Virus record (IMG/VR): IMGVR_UViG_3300022777_000128 | Reading direction: 5' to 3' (one strand) | Source of the DNA: a virus | Length of the DNA stretch: 64,000 nt | Shown here: in pieces, positions 11,159 through 54,127 of the stretch | Layout: each line of letters starts with the position of its first letter | How positions within the stretch are numbered: position 1 is the stretch's first letter | The notes under the pieces: model-generated | Databases searched by the model: none | What the model saw: only the letters and a program-made list of their open reading frames with translations | What the model was told of the DNA's origin: nothing | Position numbers and translations under genes: made by a program

Positions 11159-12226
11159 GTGCCCATGAAGACTTTCTACGTAGGGTTTCTTTCTGCTTGC
11201 GTTGCTGCGATTCTCGGCGGGTTTGTTGGATACCTCTACGCTACCGGTAGCTTTTCCGGCGGAGAGCGGACGGCGAGTCCCGAGGCGCTCAAGCACACCT
11301 CCGATGAGTTTCGACTGGCGGCGCTCGCCGGTGGAGGGAAGGGCACGGAGTCGGACTTTCGCCCGACCCGACAGATCGGGCTCGTCGACGCGCAGTGGGC
11401 AGAGGGCCGCACCGGCATCTCTTCCCGGTCGGACACCACTGGCGCGGCGCTGGATACACTCCTGTCTTACGTTGGGACGACCGAGCGCGGCGATAACAGA
11501 GGCCCCGCCGTGGAGCGGTTTTTGGCTCACGTCGGACTCGGCCCCGGGTACGCATACTGCGCCGCAGCGGTCTCGTACTGCCTGGACGCGCCCCCGGACT
11601 CACTGTCTCCGATCATGACGCGGGTGCGCTCGGCAACGGCCCAGGACTTTGATACCGATATTTCGGTAGACGCCTCCGTGGCGATGAAGATGGGCCTCGT
11701 TCCGCAAGGGTGGATCCACGTTTACGTCAAAGGGCAAGGGCCTTACGGGCACAACGGCTTCGTGCGGCACTGGCGCGGAAAGTGCGGTCGCACCGTCGAG
11801 GCCAACACCTCGAAAGGGGCTTATGGCAACCAGCGCGACGGGCAAGGCATCTGGGAGCGCCGACGTTGCTACGACCCGCAGTCATACTTCCGCCTCGACG
11901 CATTCACCCCCGTGATCTACCCGCGGTACGATTTTTCACGAGGGGGCGGACAGGAGAAGGCCGATCATCTCCAGGTGGAGGCCATTCAATCCGCCGACGG
12001 TCTCCGGCGCACTTCCTTGGCACAACCTGTTGAATTGCCCTTTATGGCAGCGCCACAATGGAGATATGGGCCTTCGTTCAGCAAAACACAATCGCAATCA
12101 TCACGGCCATCGTCACGGCTGTGGGGGCGTACTTCGGGGCGCGGAGCTACTTCCTTGCCGAGCGGAAGAAGCAAGAAGAGGAAATCGGTCGTATCAAGCA
12201 GCTTCTCGTCGGGTCCAGTGAGGTAA
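11159..12226 (+). CDS. CHAP-family endolysin with N-terminal membrane anchor
   Basis: VGTTERGDNRGPAVERFL..YCAAAVSYC and GHNGFV..TVEANT give the CHAP Cys-His pair. N-terminal hydrophobic helix. Confidence 0.75.
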   Translation: MPMKTFYVGFLSACVAAILGGFVGYLYATGSFSGGERTASPEALKHTSDEFRLAALAGGGKGTESDFRPTRQIGLVDAQWAEGRTGISSRSDTTGAALDTLLSYVGTTERGDNRGPAVERFLAHVGLGPGYAYCAAAVSYCLDAPPDSLSPIMTRVRSATAQDFDTDISVDASVAMKMGLVPQGWIHVYVKGQGPYGHNGFVRHWRGKCGRTVEANTSKGAYGNQRDGQGIWERRRCYDPQSYFRLDAFTPVIYPRYDFSRGGGQEKADHLQVEAIQSADGLRRTSLAQPVELPFMAAPQWRYGPSFSKTQSQSSRPSSRLWGRTSGRGATSLPSGRSKKRKSVVSSSFSSGPVR

Positions 12227-12552
12227 GCGTCCAGAACCTCACCAATGTAATTGAGGCGCTTCGAAGCCGGGTCGATAGGTTAGAGGAGGACCGCACGCGG
12301 ATACAGAACCTCTTAGATGAGGAGCGAGAGCGTGCCCGCAACCTTGAGGAGGAAAAGTCGAAGCTCGTCGAGGAGGTCGCCGAGGGGCGGAACCGGATCG
12401 AGCGAATGCAGGAGGAGATTCGCAAACTCAAGCGCGACCTCAATGGTGCGCGGGAGGAGGTAGAGAACATGAAGGCGGGCGGGAAGACGGCCCTCTATGT
12501 GACCGAGGGGTATGACTGGGCAAGCCCGCCCTACCGAAAAGACAACTCGTAG
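12058..12552 (+). CDS. N-terminal TM plus coiled-coil protein (lysis accessory candidate)
   Basis: IAIITAIVTAVGAYF followed by a long E/R/K heptad region. Confidence 0.65.
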   Translation: MEIWAFVQQNTIAIITAIVTAVGAYFGARSYFLAERKKQEEEIGRIKQLLVGSSEVSVQNLTNVIEALRSRVDRLEEDRTRIQNLLDEERERARNLEEEKSKLVEEVAEGRNRIERMQEEIRKLKRDLNGAREEVENMKAGGKTALYVTEGYDWASPPYRKDNS

Positions 12553-12554
12553 CC

Positions 12555-13304
12555 ATGTCGTTCTTTGATTCATTTTTCGGGGCGGTGGGATCCGGTCTCG
12601 GGCGAGCCGTGGCCTATGTGCTTATCGGCGCGATTCTCATAGGCAGCGGATACGCTCTGTACCGGTACTGGGCGCCGGGGCCAGAGACCGACCCGCAGGA
12701 TGTGACCGAGGTGGAGCCCGGGTTGCCCCCGATCTTCGACGAGTCGAGTGTCGTGCGACCGGACTCGACTGGAGAGTGGATCATCGAGACCGTGCCGGGG
12801 GACTTTGACGCGACGCTAACCATCGACCTTCCGGATTCGGACTCTACGGAAAACGAACAGGAATATGTGTCCATCGGTCTTCGGGAGGGTGCCGAGCAGT
12901 TCTTCCCCGAGCTTCCCGGCCAACGGAAGCTCCCCCTCGACGCGGTAGTGATTGGCGGCTATGGAAAAGAGAACGTGCGGATCAAGGCGCAGCCCCAGCC
13001 GATTATTGCCTTTGACCTCCAGGCCGAGGTTGGGCTTTCGCTCTTTGCATCCGACGCCAGAACCGGCGCCGCCGTTGGCGTGACTGGCGCCCGATTCTTT
13101 GGGGTCCGTCTTGGCGGATTCCTTGCCGCGGATCCGCGAGGCGAGGCCGACCGGATCAACATCCAAGTTGGCGCCGGTCCTTACGCGAGTCTTCGCGTGT
13201 ACGGCCCGTTCGGGATTGGGGTCGGAAAGGACTTAACGAGCGCCCCGCTGACCAACTTGGAGGGGGTCACGTTCACGATCACCGCGGATCTGCCGCTTCC
13301 GTAA
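12555..13304 (+). CDS. TM protein with C-terminal amphipathic beta-strands (spanin-like candidate)
   Basis: N-terminal TM, acidic linker, Gly/aromatic alternating strands at the C-terminus. Confidence 0.5.
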   Translation: MSFFDSFFGAVGSGLGRAVAYVLIGAILIGSGYALYRYWAPGPETDPQDVTEVEPGLPPIFDESSVVRPDSTGEWIIETVPGDFDATLTIDLPDSDSTENEQEYVSIGLREGAEQFFPELPGQRKLPLDAVVIGGYGKENVRIKAQPQPIIAFDLQAEVGLSLFASDARTGAAVGVTGARFFGVRLGGFLAADPRGEADRINIQVGAGPYASLRVYGPFGIGVGKDLTSAPLTNLEGVTFTITADLPLP

Positions 13305-13343
13305 CACCTCACACGCGAGACGCTCACTACTGACAACAACGCC

Positions 13344-14060
13344 GTGGCCCAGCCGACCGAGCGCGAAATCGACTCTACTGCCTTTTCTGCCCTCGTCGAA
13401 ATGACCGGAGGGGTGACCTGGACAGAGATTCCAGCCGACATACGTGAACAGTACAAGTTTCGTCGGCGGACCAATCTGCCCGGAGCCGAGAAATTCGGCA
13501 CGCCCGTACAGGTAAAGGTTTCTGCCACGCCCCCCGACGGCGGACCCCGCTTCACGAATTGGATCTGGAGCCCGGAGTTTCCGGCGGCACGCAAACAGCA
13601 AAACGGTCTGCTCATTCCTTGGGGCGCCCAGGAAGAGCGCCCGCCTTCCTACGCCGAGGCGCTCCCGGCGGCCCCTCCGCTCACGCTCCCAACCGGGGAG
13701 ATCAACATTCCCGACGGCGGGTCGGTACAGCCGCCCCCACCGCCAGACGAGCCGACTTCCGGAAGTGGCACCAGCGACGGCGGCTCCGACGACGGCTTCG
13801 AAGTCGGGGAGGCCATCGCGGCCTTCGCCAACGGGATCTTCGAGCAGCGCCGCCGCAGCGGCTCTCGATTGCCCACGAGACCGCAGACGCCAGTTCGCTC
13901 CGCAGGAATCGGGTCGACGCTCGGGATCATCGCGCTTGTCGGCGGCGTGGGCCTTGCGGCCTACCTCCTCACGTCGAGCGCTACCAGACCGGCCCCGCCG
14001 CCCCGCCGGGCGCTCCCACGGGAGAACGAGAAGAGCGAAGACGAGGAGGAAGACTACTAA
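13344..14060 (+). CDS. Pro-rich membrane-anchored protein
   Basis: PPPPP linker and TM IGSTLGIIALVGGVGLAAYLL. Confidence 0.7.
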   Translation: MAQPTEREIDSTAFSALVEMTGGVTWTEIPADIREQYKFRRRTNLPGAEKFGTPVQVKVSATPPDGGPRFTNWIWSPEFPAARKQQNGLLIPWGAQEERPPSYAEALPAAPPLTLPTGEINIPDGGSVQPPPPPDEPTSGSGTSDGGSDDGFEVGEAIAAFANGIFEQRRRSGSRLPTRPQTPVRSAGIGSTLGIIALVGGVGLAAYLLTSSATRPAPPPRRALPRENEKSEDEEEDY

Positions 14061-19510: not shown

Positions 19511-19720
19511 TCACCCGACCTGGAGGTACTCCCGCAGGTCGACGGTCTCGTGGTAGCTACACGCCGGGCAGTCGATGGAGACGTTCCCCCTCCATTGGTC
19601 CTGGTCCACCCACCCGGCGTGCCCACATCGGCAACGGACATAGGCCGTCTGCGTCTCGCTGTCTGGAAACAGGTAGCTCTCTGCTACCAGCGTTGGATGC
19701 TCGGGCTTCTGGTCAGTCAT
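19511..19720 (-). CDS. Small zinc-ribbon protein
   Basis: CRCG and CPACS pairs. Confidence 0.55.
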   Translation of the reverse strand: MTDQKPEHPTLVAESYLFPDSETQTAYVRCRCGHAGWVDQDQWRGNVSIDCPACSYHETVDLREYLQVG

Positions 19721-20328
19721 TCCTCTTCGGTTGGTTCTTCGGTTTTGGGCATCTTGCGGATCTCCCCCTCGGGGCCGACGTGCTCGTAGAGCGTCGAATC
19801 ACTGACGCCAAACTGGCCAGCGATCTGGGCAACCGTCAAGTCGTGGTCGTCTCTGTTGGCCATGAGGGTAGAGATTTGCTGGACCTCCCCCTCGGAGAGC
19901 TTCGACGGTCGACCGCCCTTCCGGCCCCGCTCTCGGGCGCTCTCCAGCCCCTCCTGGACACGTTCGTTGATGCGTTCCCGCTCGAATTGGGCCAGGGCGC
20001 CGGAGACGTGAAACCAGAACCGGCCCTGCGGGCTTTCCAGATCGATCATCTCCTTCACGACGTAGAGGTCCGCGCCGATGTCGTGGGTAATCCGTTCGGC
20101 CTTGAGGATGAGGTCCTTGAGGTCTCGGCCCATGCGCTTGAGCCGAGTAATGACGAACGTGTCCTGTTCCCGCAGCGCGTCAAGCGCGGACTGTAGCTCG
20201 GGCTTCTCTTTGGCGGCTCCGGAGATTTCCTCGGAGTAGATCCGTTCACACCCCTCCTCTTCAAGGGCGTCGATTTGCCGGTCGAGGTTCTGGTTCGAGG
20301 TCGATACGCGGGCGTATCCAATCTTCAT
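19717..20328 (-). CDS. Serine recombinase, resolvase/invertase family
   Basis: MKIGYARVSTSNQNLDRQ catalytic motif, LAQFERERINERVQEGL helix and C-terminal HTH. Confidence 0.92.
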   Translation of the reverse strand: MKIGYARVSTSNQNLDRQIDALEEEGCERIYSEEISGAAKEKPELQSALDALREQDTFVITRLKRMGRDLKDLILKAERITHDIGADLYVVKEMIDLESPQGRFWFHVSGALAQFERERINERVQEGLESARERGRKGGRPSKLSEGEVQQISTLMANRDDHDLTVAQIAGQFGVSDSTLYEHVGPEGEIRKMPKTEEPTEEE

Positions 20329-26720: not shown

Positions 26721-26750
26721 TGGCTCATGTGGTCGTGAGAAAGAAAGCAG

Positions 26751-26881
26751 TGCCCCAGGTCGGACTCGAACCGACAATGTGGGTGGGAATATCATCCCGA
26801 AGCCAACCGACCGTCTCCCCGGCCCTTGACAACTCTACCACAGGACAGCATCCCGCGTATAACCGTTTCCGCCACTGGGGC
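26751..26881 (-). ncRNA. tRNA-like RNA with a 57-nt loop in place of the anticodon loop
   Basis: Acceptor stem GCCCCAG/CTGGGGC, D-arm TGGCGGAAACGGTTATACGC, T-arm GTCGG-TTCGAGT-CCGAC, anticodon stem GGATG/TATTC. No CCA. Confidence 0.75.
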
Positions 26882-27619: not shown

Positions 27620-28042
27620 CTACTGGTGGGGGTTCTGCTCGTTCATGTCGAACAATCCAAGTTGAGTTTCTTCCTCCAACTCACCTCGCTCTTCATCTTC
27701 GTTCGACTCGTCGCCCTCCGGTTCAGTTGTAGATTCCGCGTCCGACTTCGGTTGTTCGAGATTTAGCTGCCAGAGATGATTCGGCTCGCCGAACTCCCCG
27801 TCACGCTTGTTGTCCAACTTCTCCAGCACACCTTCATCGGTGAGGTTCGTGATAGCACGTCGAACCGAAGTAATGGGAACGCCCTCGAATACCGCATCCT
27901 TCACCTCGAATGGCGTGAATCGCTTTTCCGGGTGCGCCTCAAAGAAACGTCTGACCTTGTTCTCTTGACTGGCAGCATTGGCAATCCGCTCTGCCAAGTC
28001 GTCGCCGACCAGATCAGTCGTGTTATAGTAGTGATGGCCCAT
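27620..28042 (-). CDS. Winged-HTH phage protein with QLGLF tail
   Basis: YYNTT..FTPFEV..VPITSVRRAITNLTDEGVLEK..GEFGEPNHLW. ATG 28042. Confidence 0.7.
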   Translation of the reverse strand: MGHHYYNTTDLVGDDLAERIANAASQENKVRRFFEAHPEKRFTPFEVKDAVFEGVPITSVRRAITNLTDEGVLEKLDNKRDGEFGEPNHLWQLNLEQPKSDAESTTEPEGDESNEDEERGELEEETQLGLFDMNEQNPHQ

Positions 28043-28050
28043 CGCTCTCG

Positions 28051-28157
28051 TCGTTGTCCCTGCAAAAAGCACTACCGGGTGCCTCCGCCGTCCCTGCGAA
28101 GGGAGAGGTCACCGCCATCCCTGCGAAACCCTTGACCATGTGACCGCCATCCCTGCG
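28051..28157 (-). repeat. Mini-array of four repeat-core motifs directly after the tnpB stop codon
   Basis: Cores start at 28051, 28085, 28112 and 28144 (+ strand YCGYYRTCCCTGC), spaced 34/27/32 nt with unique sequence between. Confidence 0.8.
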
Positions 28158-29372
28158 TCAACCTTCGTAGTCTTCGACCGGCATGGTCCGATCTTCCTCG
28201 TGCTCCAGGTAGTAATTGTTCAGTGCGTTGATCTCCCGGTCGACCTCGAAGGGGCACTCCGGGCAATCGAACGTCGATTGGCCGCCAAGTTCTTCGTAGA
28301 CGTGCCCACAAGCGGAGCACCGCATCGACGCCTCGACCTCCGGGTCGACCACATGCACGTCGACGCCCGCCCACTCGGACTTGTACTTTAGCTGCCGGTA
28401 GATTTCGCCCATATTCGCATTGGCCATCCGGCGGTTGATCTTCCGCTCAATCTTCCGGGGCATGTCTTCGAATCCCTGCTCGAAGAGATCCGCGACATTC
28501 CAGTCCTGGATGATGAGGGTCTGGGGACGAATGTCGTAGGCGACCTTTGCGGTCAGCTTATGCGTCTGGTCCGAACGGAGGTGACGAAGCTGCTGGTAGG
28601 TCCGGGCAAGGTTCGTGCGTGCGCGTTCCCACCCGCCAGAGCCATTCGAGCGGCGGGATAGCTGCCGGTGCTGCCGGTCTGCCCGAGACATGAGGTCAAA
28701 CACGCGGTCCATCGGAAGGTCCTCTGTTCGAGCCGCGCGGGCGGCCTCTCGCATCGCTACCCACACGCGAACGCCCGGATGTACCGCAAGCGTGTCGGGC
28801 CGCTCCTCTTCTGGGGCGAGCCGATCTTCATCGATGGGATTTCCGACGACCGCCGAGGAGGAGATTACCCAGTGGCTCGCGTCTTTCTTGATCGTGACTC
28901 GCTTGTGGGAGACCTCTTCGCCGGTAGGGATGTAGTCGGGCTCGACGAGCTTGAGTCCCGGGCTCCGCATCTTCGGAAACTCGACGTGGGATCCGGAGAA
29001 GTCACAAGTGTATCCCTGGACCGAGAGCGTCGGGCCGTGGCGCTCGTAGCGCCGCTTCGGGTGGCCGGGACTCTCTCCGGCGGAGACGCGGCGGAAAAAC
29101 CCCTGGTACGCCTCGAAGAGGTCTTTGAGTGCGTAGTCGCCGACCTTCCGCGGAGCATCTGCCCAATGCGAAAAGCCGCCGTCCCCCCGCCTCTCCGTAA
29201 ACATGCGGCTCACTTCCGTCTTGGAAAGGTTCTTCCCCTCTTCCTCGTAGGCGCGCTCTTTTATCGAACGCGCCCAGTTGTAGATGCCCCGACGGATCCT
29301 CCCCCAGTGACGGAGGCGCTCGGCTTGCTCCTCGGTCGGTTCGATTCGGGTTTTGAATGCTTTTCGGCTCAT
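28158..29372 (-). CDS. tnpB: Nuclease-inactivated TnpB/Cas12f-like RNA-guided protein
   Basis: IS605 OrfB HTH (AFKTRIEPTEEQ..YNWA), REC/WED region and CSACG..CPEC zinc ribbon. RuvC motifs read LAVHPG (D>H), IIQDW (E>Q) and DREINA (D>E). Confidence 0.9.
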   Translation of the reverse strand: MSRKAFKTRIEPTEEQAERLRHWGRIRRGIYNWARSIKERAYEEEGKNLSKTEVSRMFTERRGDGGFSHWADAPRKVGDYALKDLFEAYQGFFRRVSAGESPGHPKRRYERHGPTLSVQGYTCDFSGSHVEFPKMRSPGLKLVEPDYIPTGEEVSHKRVTIKKDASHWVISSSAVVGNPIDEDRLAPEEERPDTLAVHPGVRVWVAMREAARAARTEDLPMDRVFDLMSRADRQHRQLSRRSNGSGGWERARTNLARTYQQLRHLRSDQTHKLTAKVAYDIRPQTLIIQDWNVADLFEQGFEDMPRKIERKINRRMANANMGEIYRQLKYKSEWAGVDVHVVDPEVEASMRCSACGHVYEELGGQSTFDCPECPFEVDREINALNNYYLEHEEDRTMPVEDYEG

Positions 29373-29411
29373 GGTCCTGTTTGCAGCCAATTAGAGAGTG
29401 AGCGAGTCCAG

Positions 29412-30284
29412 CCGTTGTCCCTGCGTGTGTAGCGAAACCCCCACCCTTCAAGCCGTCCGCTCGTTGTCCCTGTGCGCGTTGGAAAACCCTCAAGCTCTCC
29501 GTAAAACGGGGTCGGGTTCTGCCGCTGACCCTGCGTGCTTCAAGTAAACAGAAACCCACCCGACACCGCTGTCCCTGCGGGCGTGGAAAAGCCTTCTTCC
29601 ACGAGTCCCGTTGTCCCTGCGTGCAACACTGTCCTCCTGGGACCACCACCGTTGTCCCTGCGGCGTGGAGAAACCCTGCACACGCATCCAAGGGCGATCT
29701 TGACCGTTGTCCCTGCGCGTGTGGGGCGTCCCGGCTCCGCAGTGTGCACGTCCTTTTCTCCCTCCCGTTGTCCCTGCGCGTGTGGGGCGTCCCTTGGTTC
29801 TCCCTCTCTCTGCCGTCATCCCTGCGGTGATCTTCGCTACTGGCCGTCTCGTCGCCATCCCTGCGTGGGTGGAGAGGCCCGTGAGCCGGTCGGGTTTGTC
29901 CTGGTCGGAGGCCCGTTGTCCCTGCGCGTGTGGAGAAACCCACAATACCCTACCCTCGACGCTCACAGTCAGACCGTTGTCCCTGCGGGCGTGGAGGAAC
30001 CACCGACATGCAGCAGGGAGAGATTCCACGAGACCCGTTGTCCCTGCGCGAGTAGAGAAAACCAAGTCGAGTCGCTTGTGTGAACCGGCGCCGTTGTCCC
30101 TACGTGCGTGGGAAAACCGAATAATTCCGAACCTTCCGCCTGGGTCTTTCTTCCGTTGTCCCTGCGCGCGTGCAGAAACCCTAAGTCCTTCTGTGAGAGC
30201 CTCACTCTCCGAACCGTTGTCCCTGCGCGCGTAGAGAAGCCCAACAATCTCGGCGACGACCCCGAACTGCGCCCGTTATCCCTG
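29412..30284. CRISPR. Degenerate type I-E-like CRISPR array, 17 repeat cores, no cas genes
   Basis: Repeat about CCGTTGTCCCTGCGCGTGTGGAGAAACCC (29 nt) starting at 29412, 29461, 29522, 29566, 29608, 29649, 29704, 29765, 29813, 29852, 29913, 29974, 30035, 30091, 30153, 30214 and 30273. Six periods are exactly 61 nt and the spacers are unique. Confidence 0.88.
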
Positions 30285-30299
30285 GAAAGGAAAGAACAA

Positions 30300-30530
30300 A
30301 AAAGTGCCCCTCCCCGCGCAGGGTTCGACCATCAACCCGCTTGCACCGGGTCCGGCGACGCCCCGCAGGGAAGAGAAGCGGCGCGTTTCCCGGCGTCTTA
30401 TGTGCGGTCAAGTCGCTTTACGCGGGGATCTGTGTCCCGCTGGTTCCGGCCCAACGCTCCGTACCGTCCGGGGAGAGGCACATCTTAATGTCTCTTTCTT
30501 CGATACCTCGAAGTAAAGCAGCTTTAATAG
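30300..30530 (-). promoter_or_regulatory. Leader-like region with inverted partial repeats and a TAAAGC-A-GCTTTA palindrome
   Basis: Inverted repeat fragments at 30315-30323 and 30357-30371. Palindrome within 30512-30530 resembles the shared promoter motif. Confidence 0.45.
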
Positions 30531-30576
30531 GTTTCTATAAGGGAGGCTTCTTCACAGTTTCTAAACGATACCAGCC

Positions 30577-31044
30577 TCAAAATAGGCTCTCAAGCTCGGG
30601 CTCTTCCTTTATCTCTTGCAGGAGGGCCGTTTTGTCGAGCGTGCGGTTGTGCTCCAGCTTCAATGCGGCAATCTGGGCAGTTCGGTCGCCTCCATCCTCC
30701 ATGAAGGCAGAAACAAGCAGCATGAGCTTCTCCAGGTCCTTATCGTCGACGGTCTCGACCAACTCCCCGTCCTCGTTGAGACGGGCCGCGTAGCCCCACT
30801 CGTCCCCGGTCGGAATCTCATCGGCTTCAACCATCTCATTTGTGATCGGCTTGATGTCGAGCAAGTCCCAGGCATCGATGTCACAGCCGTAGAATACCTC
30901 TCGCCCGTCCTGGTCCAGGATGCGCCCGATGTCCGCCGCAAGATCGTCGAGCGTGCGGTGGATTCGGGTCGCGCCGTCGGGCTCTACGACCTGGAAGACA
31001 GTATCGTCGGTGAACGGAAGCTCATCGGTGGCCATGTCGCTCAT
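30577..31044 (-). CDS. Acidic hypothetical protein
   Basis: Tiles the operon. Confidence 0.6.
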   Translation of the reverse strand: MSDMATDELPFTDDTVFQVVEPDGATRIHRTLDDLAADIGRILDQDGREVFYGCDIDAWDLLDIKPITNEMVEADEIPTGDEWGYAARLNEDGELVETVDDKDLEKLMLLVSAFMEDGGDRTAQIAALKLEHNRTLDKTALLQEIKEEPELESLF

Positions 31045-36997: not shown

Positions 36998-37015
36998 CCG
37001 TTGCCCCTGCGCACG
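36998..37015. repeat. Solitary copy of the array repeat core
   Basis: CCGTTGCCCCTGCGCACG is 16/18 identical to the repeats at 30153 and 30214. Confidence 0.55.
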
Positions 37016-53956: not shown

Positions 53957-53986
53957 GGCACTTTAGCTTTGCAGGTGAAGGAATTG

Positions 53987-54127
53987 CAGCCGGGGGCGGA
54001 GTCGAACCGCCAACGCCTTGCCCGTTGCCGCCTGTTGGGGCGGGAGAAGCCCGTTGTCCCTGCGGTGTTGCGCTTTGGGGTCGGCAGGCAATACCAGTGG
54101 GCACAGTACCCGTTCTGCCACCCGGCC
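53987..54127 (-). ncRNA. tRNA-like RNA with a ~75-nt insert containing the CRISPR-like repeat core
   Basis: Acceptor stem GGCCGGG/CCCGGCT, D-stem GCAG/CTGT, T-arm GGCGG-TTCGACT-CCGCC. A GCCC/GGGC stem closes an insert holding CCGCAGGGACAACGG (54051-54065). Confidence 0.75.

Follow-up and report, generated by a model that had tools for sequence, protein, structure and literature searches.

A virus-like element that carries a catalytically altered TnpB homologue between two sets of CRISPR-like repeats raises the question of whether protein and repeats form one RNA-guided system and, if so, whether that system binds its targets rather than cutting them. The locus lies at positions 28,051 to 30,530 of the IMG/VR record IMGVR_UViG_3300022777_000128, a stretch of 64,000 nucleotides analysed here as a whole (the window). 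It is probably a type V-like, nuclease-dead, RNA-guided DNA-binding module that depends on a trans-activating CRISPR RNA (tracrRNA) and is aimed at co-occurring DNA. The components are as follows.

28158..29372, minus strand: gene of the nuclease-dead TnpB/Cas12-like effector (404 aa; H198, Q289 and E380 at RuvC-I, RuvC-II and RuvC-III; zinc ribbon intact)
29412..30285, minus strand: upstream CRISPR-like array (17 units and one degenerate unit; repeat of ~29 nt, GGGTTTCTCCACRCGC + GCAGGGACAACGG; spacers mostly 32 nt)
28051..28156, minus strand: downstream mini-array (four repeat cores with 14-21-nt spacers, beginning one base past the stop codon, TGA, of the effector gene)
30288..30486, minus strand: structured noncoding RNA (ncRNA) of ~190 nt, tracrRNA-like and a putative derivative of an omegaRNA scaffold (from conservation, RNAalifold and a covariance model)
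30307..30323, minus strand: candidate anti-repeat within the ncRNA (CCCTGCGCGGGGAGGGG), then a T-run at 30298-30303

The effector is encoded on the minus strand by an open reading frame (ORF) spanning 28158-29390 and present as one copy within the window. Its start was set at the ATG at 29372, because homologues begin there. The protein contains the Pfam domains HTH_OrfB_IS605, OrfB_IS605 and Cas12f1-like_TNB, and its AlphaFold2 model (mean predicted local distance difference test score, pLDDT, 90.2) had ISDra2 TnpB (8h1j) as its best Foldseek match among the solved structures of the PDB (E 2e-22), with further matches to ISFba1 TnpB, Cas12f, Fanzor2, LaTranC and dCas12f. Fold (wedge, WED; recognition, REC; RuvC; zinc ribbon) and the OrfB_IS605 and TNB domains place the protein within the TnpB/Cas12 superfamily. 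In alignment with active TnpBs, the four zinc-ribbon cysteines are retained and the D-E-D RuvC triad is absent: His replaces Asp at RuvC-I (LAVHPG), Gln replaces Glu at RuvC-II (IIQDW) and Glu replaces Asp at RuvC-III (DREINA), presumably inactivating substitutions in a TnpB homologue of the type described for TldRs. The first-pass annotation, which was made from the sequence alone, had described a full-length TnpB fold with H/Q/E in place of D/E/D, and domain search, structural model and motif alignment are all in agreement with it.

Close homologues of the effector are rare, with four proteins among 5.8 billion at 100%, 86%, 55% and 54% identity and an additional relative at 47% identity among 50%-cluster representatives. 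Protein-pattern searches of IMG/VR, JGI metagenomes and GTDB genomes yielded no close relatives, only ordinary TnpBs of 21-29% identity. H/Q/E is common to all of the close homologues, and the ORF is intact and full length in all homologues. The ratio of nonsynonymous to synonymous substitution rates (dN/dS) was 0.08 between the window and locus L004 (86% protein identity) and 0.10 between loci L001 (55%) and L003 (54%). The effector is under strong purifying selection, and since the catalytic replacements are conserved under that selection, they are not the product of decay.

In order to place the protein in a wider family, an alignment of 155 sequences was used, comprising the 150 nearest 50%-cluster representatives and the close homologues. 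His occupies RuvC-I in 35 of the 155 and is mostly accompanied by Glu at RuvC-III, by Glu or Gln at RuvC-II and by a Trp two residues past position II. These sequences cluster on a FastTree phylogeny (none of 500 label shuffles was equally clustered), where the effector falls within an all-HQE subclade of eight representatives (local support 99%). When 30 members of the His clade were aligned, His198 was invariant but no acidic residue (Asp or Glu) was, so that a conserved two-metal site is lacking; E, D, K and G all occur at position III, and position II is Q in the subclade of the effector. An independent recruitment of a dead TnpB by a virus, as first proposed, is not supported, since the His clade and its association with arrays are older and wider than this virus and include members on soil contigs.

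The arrays of the window consist of direct repeats with unique spacers beside the effector gene (17 units upstream and four downstream), as is expected of a type V locus. The repeat core, GCAGGGACAACGG, was found in 20 copies in the window at up to two mismatches, compared to 2.7 expected (none of 100 shuffles reached this number), and all copies are on the strand of the effector gene. The final core of the upstream array ends 40 nt ahead of the effector ATG. Each repeat of ~29 nt is made up of a variable 5' half (GGGTTTCTCCACRCGC) and the conserved core, and only the 3' 13 nt of the repeat are strictly conserved; the repeat forms no stable hairpin (-3.9 kcal/mol) and lacks the stable Cas6e stem-loop of a type I-E repeat. 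The earlier description of a 17-unit array 40 nt from the ATG and four cores at the stop codon was accurate in count and position and is corrected in one respect: the array is irregular. Its period is 61 in the gene-distal half, where spacers are 32 nt, and 41-55 in the gene-proximal half, where spacers are shorter and irregular. Elsewhere in the window, a solitary core with one mismatch (GCAGGGGCAACGG) occurs at 36998-37010 on the minus strand, directly past a TTATAAT motif; ~0.07 such matches are expected by chance, and a stand-alone guide unit is one possibility.

The association of gene and array extends to every examined locus with flanking sequence. The seven loci of the subclade that were examined (35-86% identity) all contain same-strand arrays, mostly with a 61-bp period and with repeats ending in GGGAYRRCGG or a variant. 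Such arrays adjoin the effector gene in L001, L003, L004, L154, L155 and L156, and L157 and L160, from neighbouring His clades, likewise have arrays beside the gene. L001, part of an 85.9-kb contig syntenic with the window, has ~45 units of GGTAGCTCCGCRCGCRCAGGGATGACGG on the strand of the gene, both upstream and downstream of it. In L003 and L004 the arrays follow directly on the effector stop codon, which in L001 and L003 lies inside the first repeat, and in all three loci a full array occupies the position of the mini-array in the window. The upstream array of L154 (47% identity) fills the 1.3 kb before the gene with ~20 units, mostly of 61-bp period, and repeats ending in GGGGATGGCGG. In L156 (33%) six units of 61-bp period lie past the gene, and in L155 (35%) a repeat is found at the contig end, past the gene. 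The link between dead TnpB and arrays that was suggested for the window alone recurs in each related locus examined. A repeat-pattern scan of IMG/VR recovered unrelated coding repeats only.

Several neighbouring genes were observed in these loci. L001 contains a second TnpB-like gene (P0012, 430 aa; 12349-13641, plus strand) between two stretches of the same repeat array, with the RuvC-I and RuvC-III Asp intact and GQL at position II; the window has no counterpart. A 78-nt segment of the L001 array is duplicated at 11627 and 12287. P0012 may either stem from an insertion sequence (IS) that entered the array or serve as a nuclease partner. JGI soil contigs (L166-L177) contain very regular arrays of 61-62-bp period with repeats ending in GCGCAGGGACGACGG or ..ATGGCGG (22 units in L166), and TnpB-like genes lie beside such arrays in L169, L171 and L172, the last with D / E-G-W / R at the RuvC positions. 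The soil contigs suggest a wider, still active group of array-associated TnpBs with type I-E-like repeats. Helix-turn-helix (HTH) genes flank the distant homologues (HTH_3 in L155, a weak MarR_2 match in L156). In the window, the gene directly past the mini-array (27620-28042, minus strand; ATG 9 nt beyond the last core) has as its product an acidic protein of 140 aa, which contains a winged-helix-like segment (..ITSVRRAITNLTDEGVLEKL..) and has no Pfam match.

A further component shared among the loci is the ncRNA, which in the window sits in the 290 nt separating the array from the upstream gene. It is 70-71% identical to L001:9718-9918, L003:1898-2093 and L002:2544-2744, segments directly upstream of the homologous genes, and all copies end with a T-run. 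RNAalifold, run on three sequences, predicted a structure of 53 pairs, of which 10 show compensatory changes; several of the G-U pairs fit the minus strand only. A covariance model, R1, scored 204-218 bits on these copies. It also detected a shortened copy directly past the gene of L155 (20 bits, E 7e-7), followed by a T-run and a repeat, as well as a weak match (13 bits) in L160, within the P0018 ORF at its 3' end, where an omegaRNA classically lies. No Rfam family matches the ncRNA.

From its sequence, the ncRNA looks like a tracrRNA, because the repeat segment CGCGCAGGG has its complement in the 3' part of the ncRNA (CCCUGCGCG GGGAGGGG in the window) and because one position covaries between loci. 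Perfect complementarity spans 9 nt, and the anti-repeat could also pair with the 5' half of the repeat through wobbles. At the covarying position the window has C in the anti-repeat and G in 18 of its 20 repeat copies, while L001 and L003 have U in the anti-repeat and A or G in the repeats (26 A and 16 G in the former; 4 A in the latter). Effector and arrays stay together in all related loci examined, to identities as low as 35%, and a tracrRNA-like RNA with a covarying anti-repeat accompanies them, which supports a functional link between the two.

Potential targets were sought by comparing positions 27900-30600 with the Logan contigs of two samples from one study, the source sample (X1) and another (X2). 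Four of the 17 spacers match other contigs of the same metagenomes over 30-34 nt with 0-3 mismatches:

30003..30034, minus strand: spacer; match at 30001-30034 (34 nt, 2-3 mismatches), with the X2 match on a 2468-nt contig of depth 56
29942..29973, minus strand: spacer; match at 29941-29973 (33 nt, 2 mismatches) in an AT-rich stretch with stops in six frames
29881..29912, minus strand: spacer; match of 32 nt (2 mismatches) on a contig of depth 23.7
29733..29764, minus strand: spacer; match at 29735-29764 (30 nt, 0 mismatches) inside an ORF of another contig

The matches stop at the spacer boundaries, beyond which the contigs, from both samples, continue into unrelated non-repeat sequence. By our own estimate the chance expectation is at most ~1e-3 per spacer match. 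Two protospacers lie inside ORFs with acidic, halophile-like translations; that of spacer 29942..29973 is probably intergenic, given the stop codons in all six frames. Target-contig depths ranged from 3 to 56, compared to 9.5 for the virus in X1 and 2-3 in X2. The protospacer flanks are absent from the window and from all 180 fetched loci. Spacers derived from foreign DNA are a feature of type V systems, and the four matches, without a self match, are of this kind; they also fit the action on competitors or host that the first-pass annotation had envisaged. A shared target-adjacent motif (TAM), which it had suggested looking for, may be indicated: the repeat-proximal flanks (..CTGTAAATA, ..CTCTTCGTT, ..CTGTTCGTA) have T at -2 and -6 in three of three, which is a hint and not a defined motif.

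Two other kinds of target were considered and rejected. Self-regulation was discarded because matches of spacers or their prefixes to the window do not exceed chance (21% of shuffles reached the longest prefix match, 12 nt), and cross-targeting of the related loci L001-L004 and L154 because no spacer matches them.

The carrier is likely virus-like, with a halophilic archaeon as its host. The G+C content of the window is 60%, its proteome is acidic (median isoelectric point 5.0), and its two tRNA genes contain anticodon-loop introns of 55 and 66 nt, an archaeal type; ARAGORN detects neither gene unless introns are allowed. Other products encoded in the window include a phage-type primase, a DUF5131 protein, HNH endonucleases, ParB and an invertase. 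No virion proteins were recognised by PHROGs or Pfam in the window, for which reason its viral nature is rated as likely only, and this status rests on the phage-type replication genes, the synteny with the ~86-kb contig and an earlier, unconfirmed capsid note. Known phages gave no DNA match to the locus or array, even at E 10. In agreement with the report of a window without tnpA, cas1, cas2 or cas6, a Pfam scan of 60 window ORFs of at least 90 aa, which is not exhaustive, found no cas1/2/4/6, Y1 tnpA, Tn7 genes (tnsB, tnsC, tniQ) or type I-E cas genes. An extracytoplasmic function (ECF) sigma factor gene, rpoE, was found neither in these ORFs nor among the called genes of related loci. A serine recombinase/invertase gene (Resolvase + HTH_7) at 19717-20328 on the minus strand is 82% identical to L001:19429-20079; it is the sole resolvase gene, ~8 kb from the effector in both the window and L001, and is probably viral and not the tnpA of an IS607 element.

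From these components we infer a pathway of transcription, processing, RNA-protein binding, DNA binding, lack of cleavage, biological effect and spacer acquisition. In this pathway, the virus-like element would provide its halophilic archaeal host with a compact CRISPR system that is type V-like and lacks adaptation genes. Transcription of the array would probably use the minus strand and proceed from the ncRNA side to the gene side, and the ~190-nt ncRNA would pair with each repeat through its 3' anti-repeat, a duplex that the TnpB-derived protein would bind. The guide would be the ~32-nt spacer following the conserved repeat end (ACAACGG or AUGRCGG). The complex is predicted to bind matching DNA without cutting it, because the RuvC acids are H/Q/E and the family has no invariant acid, and the bound complex may block transcription or replication of co-occurring DNA, be it of rival viruses, plasmids or the host. 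Spacers were probably acquired via host Cas1-Cas2 in trans, or by recombination between arrays.

Several observations weigh against this reading. Transcription, processing and strand of both array and ncRNA are inferred. The covariation of the anti-repeat involves a single position, and the copies of the repeat in any one array do not count as independent. Furthermore, a stem with covariation support is predicted to join the 3' strand of the ncRNA in cis to the 5' end of the same molecule, so that only ~8-9 nt (CCCUGYGC) may be free for the repeat, and duplex energies fail to separate cognate from non-cognate pairs of repeat and ncRNA. Part of the upstream array may be decaying, since its gene-proximal repeats are degenerate. 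The invariant His198 could mean a changed rather than an absent activity. As for the targets, the protospacer flanks are absent from IMG/VR, their translations have no Pfam match, and the TAM is hinted at by the T at -2 and -6.

The alternative that survives best leaves the molecular mechanism as described and differs in its purpose: the effector would be regulatory, TldR-like, tuning host genes during infection. Prophage TldR remodels host flagella (PMC10705468), one of the protospacers lies in an AT-rich, intergenic-looking stretch, and the X2 target contig has a depth of 56 against 2-3 for the virus, as a host chromosome might show. Against it, two protospacers lie inside ORFs, and an array of at least 17 diverse spacers with signs of turnover resembles immunity more than a fixed regulon; regulation is the less likely role.

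An extended form of the proposal is unlikely in its entirety. It would make the His-marked TnpB clade a distinct, undescribed type V-like subtype in which the omegaRNA has been split into a scaffold RNA and type I-E-like repeats. Viruses and other elements would borrow host Cas1-Cas2 to load spacers against rivals, the His pocket would be a metal-independent RNase maturing long arrays, and the repeat core found in a tRNA intron of the window (described below) would be freed by the archaeal splicing endonuclease to act as an additional guide.

Activity of the H/Q/E pocket, whether as a nuclease with other metal ligands or as a metal-independent RNase maturing the precursor CRISPR RNA (pre-crRNA), would mean that DNA or RNA is cut after all. 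The invariance of His198 in 30 family members favours it, and TnpB reportedly processes its own RNA, according to one study. In discussing catalytic rearrangements, Altae-Tran et al. 2023 (PMC10691335) argue that activity persists in many TnpB groups with replaced catalytic residues. Against it stand the Q at position II throughout the subclade and the variation at position III (E, D, K, G), with no invariant acidic residue and hence no conserved two-metal site, and we regard it as distinctly unlikely.

It is very unlikely that the arrays are host-type class 1 arrays exploiting the Cascade of the host, with the dead TnpB a mere neighbour or in some other role. The window array (29-nt repeat, 32-nt spacer, 61-bp period, ending in ...GGGAUGNCGG) does resemble a type I-E array, and virus-borne mini-arrays that use host Cas proteins exist. 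Regular arrays with ...GCGCAGGGACGACGG repeats are present in soil metagenomes, and no adaptation or processing genes were found in the window ORFs scanned. A mere neighbour is nevertheless difficult to reconcile with a gene-array link that holds to ~35% protein identity and across environments, or with a dedicated ncRNA with an anti-repeat that accompanies the gene. The lack of a stable repeat hairpin, with only the 3' 13 nt conserved, fits type V pairing of repeat and tracrRNA rather than Cas6e recognition.

A decayed IS200/IS605 remnant that lies beside an unrelated array by chance, as suggested by the lack of tnpA in the scan, the lost catalytic residues and the degenerate gene-proximal repeats, is in effect refuted by the conserved linkage to array and ncRNA, a dN/dS of 0.08-0.10 and a full-length ORF in all homologues; close homologues with intact RuvC and no array, which had been named in advance as the mark of such a remnant, were not found among the loci examined, and placement of the protein in a tree with its homologues, also proposed at the outset, returned an all-HQE subclade, whose examined loci have adjoining arrays.

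The concept of a dead RNA-guided binder is known from TldR, Cas12m, Cas12k, dCas12f and V-U groups with altered RuvC sites, and the locus is a new lineage of it. Cas12k is among the RNA-guided proteins that bind rather than cut, and to our knowledge all characterised proteins of this kind (TldR, Cas12m, dCas12f and Cas12k) are bacterial. The locus differs from Cas12k and the type V-K CRISPR-associated transposons (CAST) in that none of the tnsB, tnsC and tniQ Pfam families occurs in the 60 ORFs scanned. TldRs, the TnpB-like nuclease-dead repressors (Wiegand et al., PMC10705468; PMC13622181), are similar in being TnpB-derived, with RuvC residues replaced, non-mobile, carried by viruses (fliC-TldR on prophages) and presumed to bind without cutting. 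In contrast, TldRs are bacterial and often C-terminally truncated, and their scaffold and guide are fused in one RNA, the guide being 9-16 nt long. The effector of the window is full length with an intact zinc ribbon and the host is archaeal; rather than a single fused omegaRNA-like guide beside the gene, there are a separate scaffold RNA and multi-spacer arrays on both sides.

The CRISPR-associated cluster of dead Cas12f proteins and dCas12f-sigmaE (Hoffmann et al. 2026, PMC13472631) likewise combine dead miniature type V effectors with CRISPR arrays and a covarying scaffold RNA. They are Cas12f-derived, C-terminally truncated and bacterial, whereas the effector described here has its best fold and sequence matches among TnpBs (8h1j), keeps all domains and has no rpoE found nearby. 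Cas12m (type V-M; PMC11013384) is also array-guided and interferes by DNA binding without adaptation genes, as is predicted here; unlike the effector, it is ~600 aa, keeps its RuvC acids and processes its own CRISPR RNA (crRNA), with no need of a tracrRNA. According to Altae-Tran et al. 2023 (PMC10691335), V-U24 is associated with arrays, its RuvC-I is non-canonical and an HTH protein is encoded nearby. By this description it resembles L155, where an HTH_3 gene overlaps the start of the effector gene; neither a function nor an RNA component is given for V-U24 there.

Among active nucleases, TranC and Cas12f-type tracrRNA systems (LaTranC, 9jfq) share a TnpB-sized effector and an omegaRNA apparently split into scaffold and repeats, with a weaker fold match to the effector (E 1e-10) than that of ISDra2 TnpB. 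The IS200/IS605 TnpB-omegaRNA system of ISDra2 (8h1j) has the same fold, domain order and zinc ribbon and is the nearest solved structure; in the window, by comparison, tnpA was not found, no transposon ends were recognised, the gene is single-copy, the triad is replaced and arrays take the place of the single guide.

What is novel is the combination of a full-length, TnpB-near H/Q/E lineage with a separate scaffold RNA, arrays on both sides and an archaeal virus-like carrier. L155 and, through a weak match, L160 have the scaffold where an omegaRNA would lie, an arrangement that would represent a concrete intermediate in the transition from omegaRNA to tracrRNA and CRISPR repeat. Spacers match co-resident DNA although adaptation genes were not found in the window scan, which makes the locus a test case for spacer acquisition in trans. 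Furthermore, the locus would add to the evidence that archaeal viruses use guide arrays against other genetic elements, and the 404-aa protein is a compact candidate for a programmable DNA binder at high salt.

Outside the module, one further feature may be related to it:

53986..54127, minus strand: tRNA-Ala(GGC), with a 66-nt anticodon-loop intron that contains a 15-nt exact copy of the repeat core and 22 nt more

The intron copy of the core lies at 54051-54065, on the same strand as the array, and is followed by the 22 nt. C/D box guide RNAs are encoded in archaeal tRNA introns, and from its sequence the intron core could be a guide unit released by tRNA splicing. The second tRNA gene, tRNA-Ile(GAT) at 26750-26881 on the minus strand with a 55-nt intron, is located 1.2 kb downstream of the mini-array. 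Lastly, ~45 nt at the end of the upstream gene (30554-30600) are near-identical in several other contigs of the same samples, including an 8.6-kb contig at depth 53, after which the sequences diverge; this point may be the insertion junction of the ncRNA-array-effector module relative to related, more abundant viruses.

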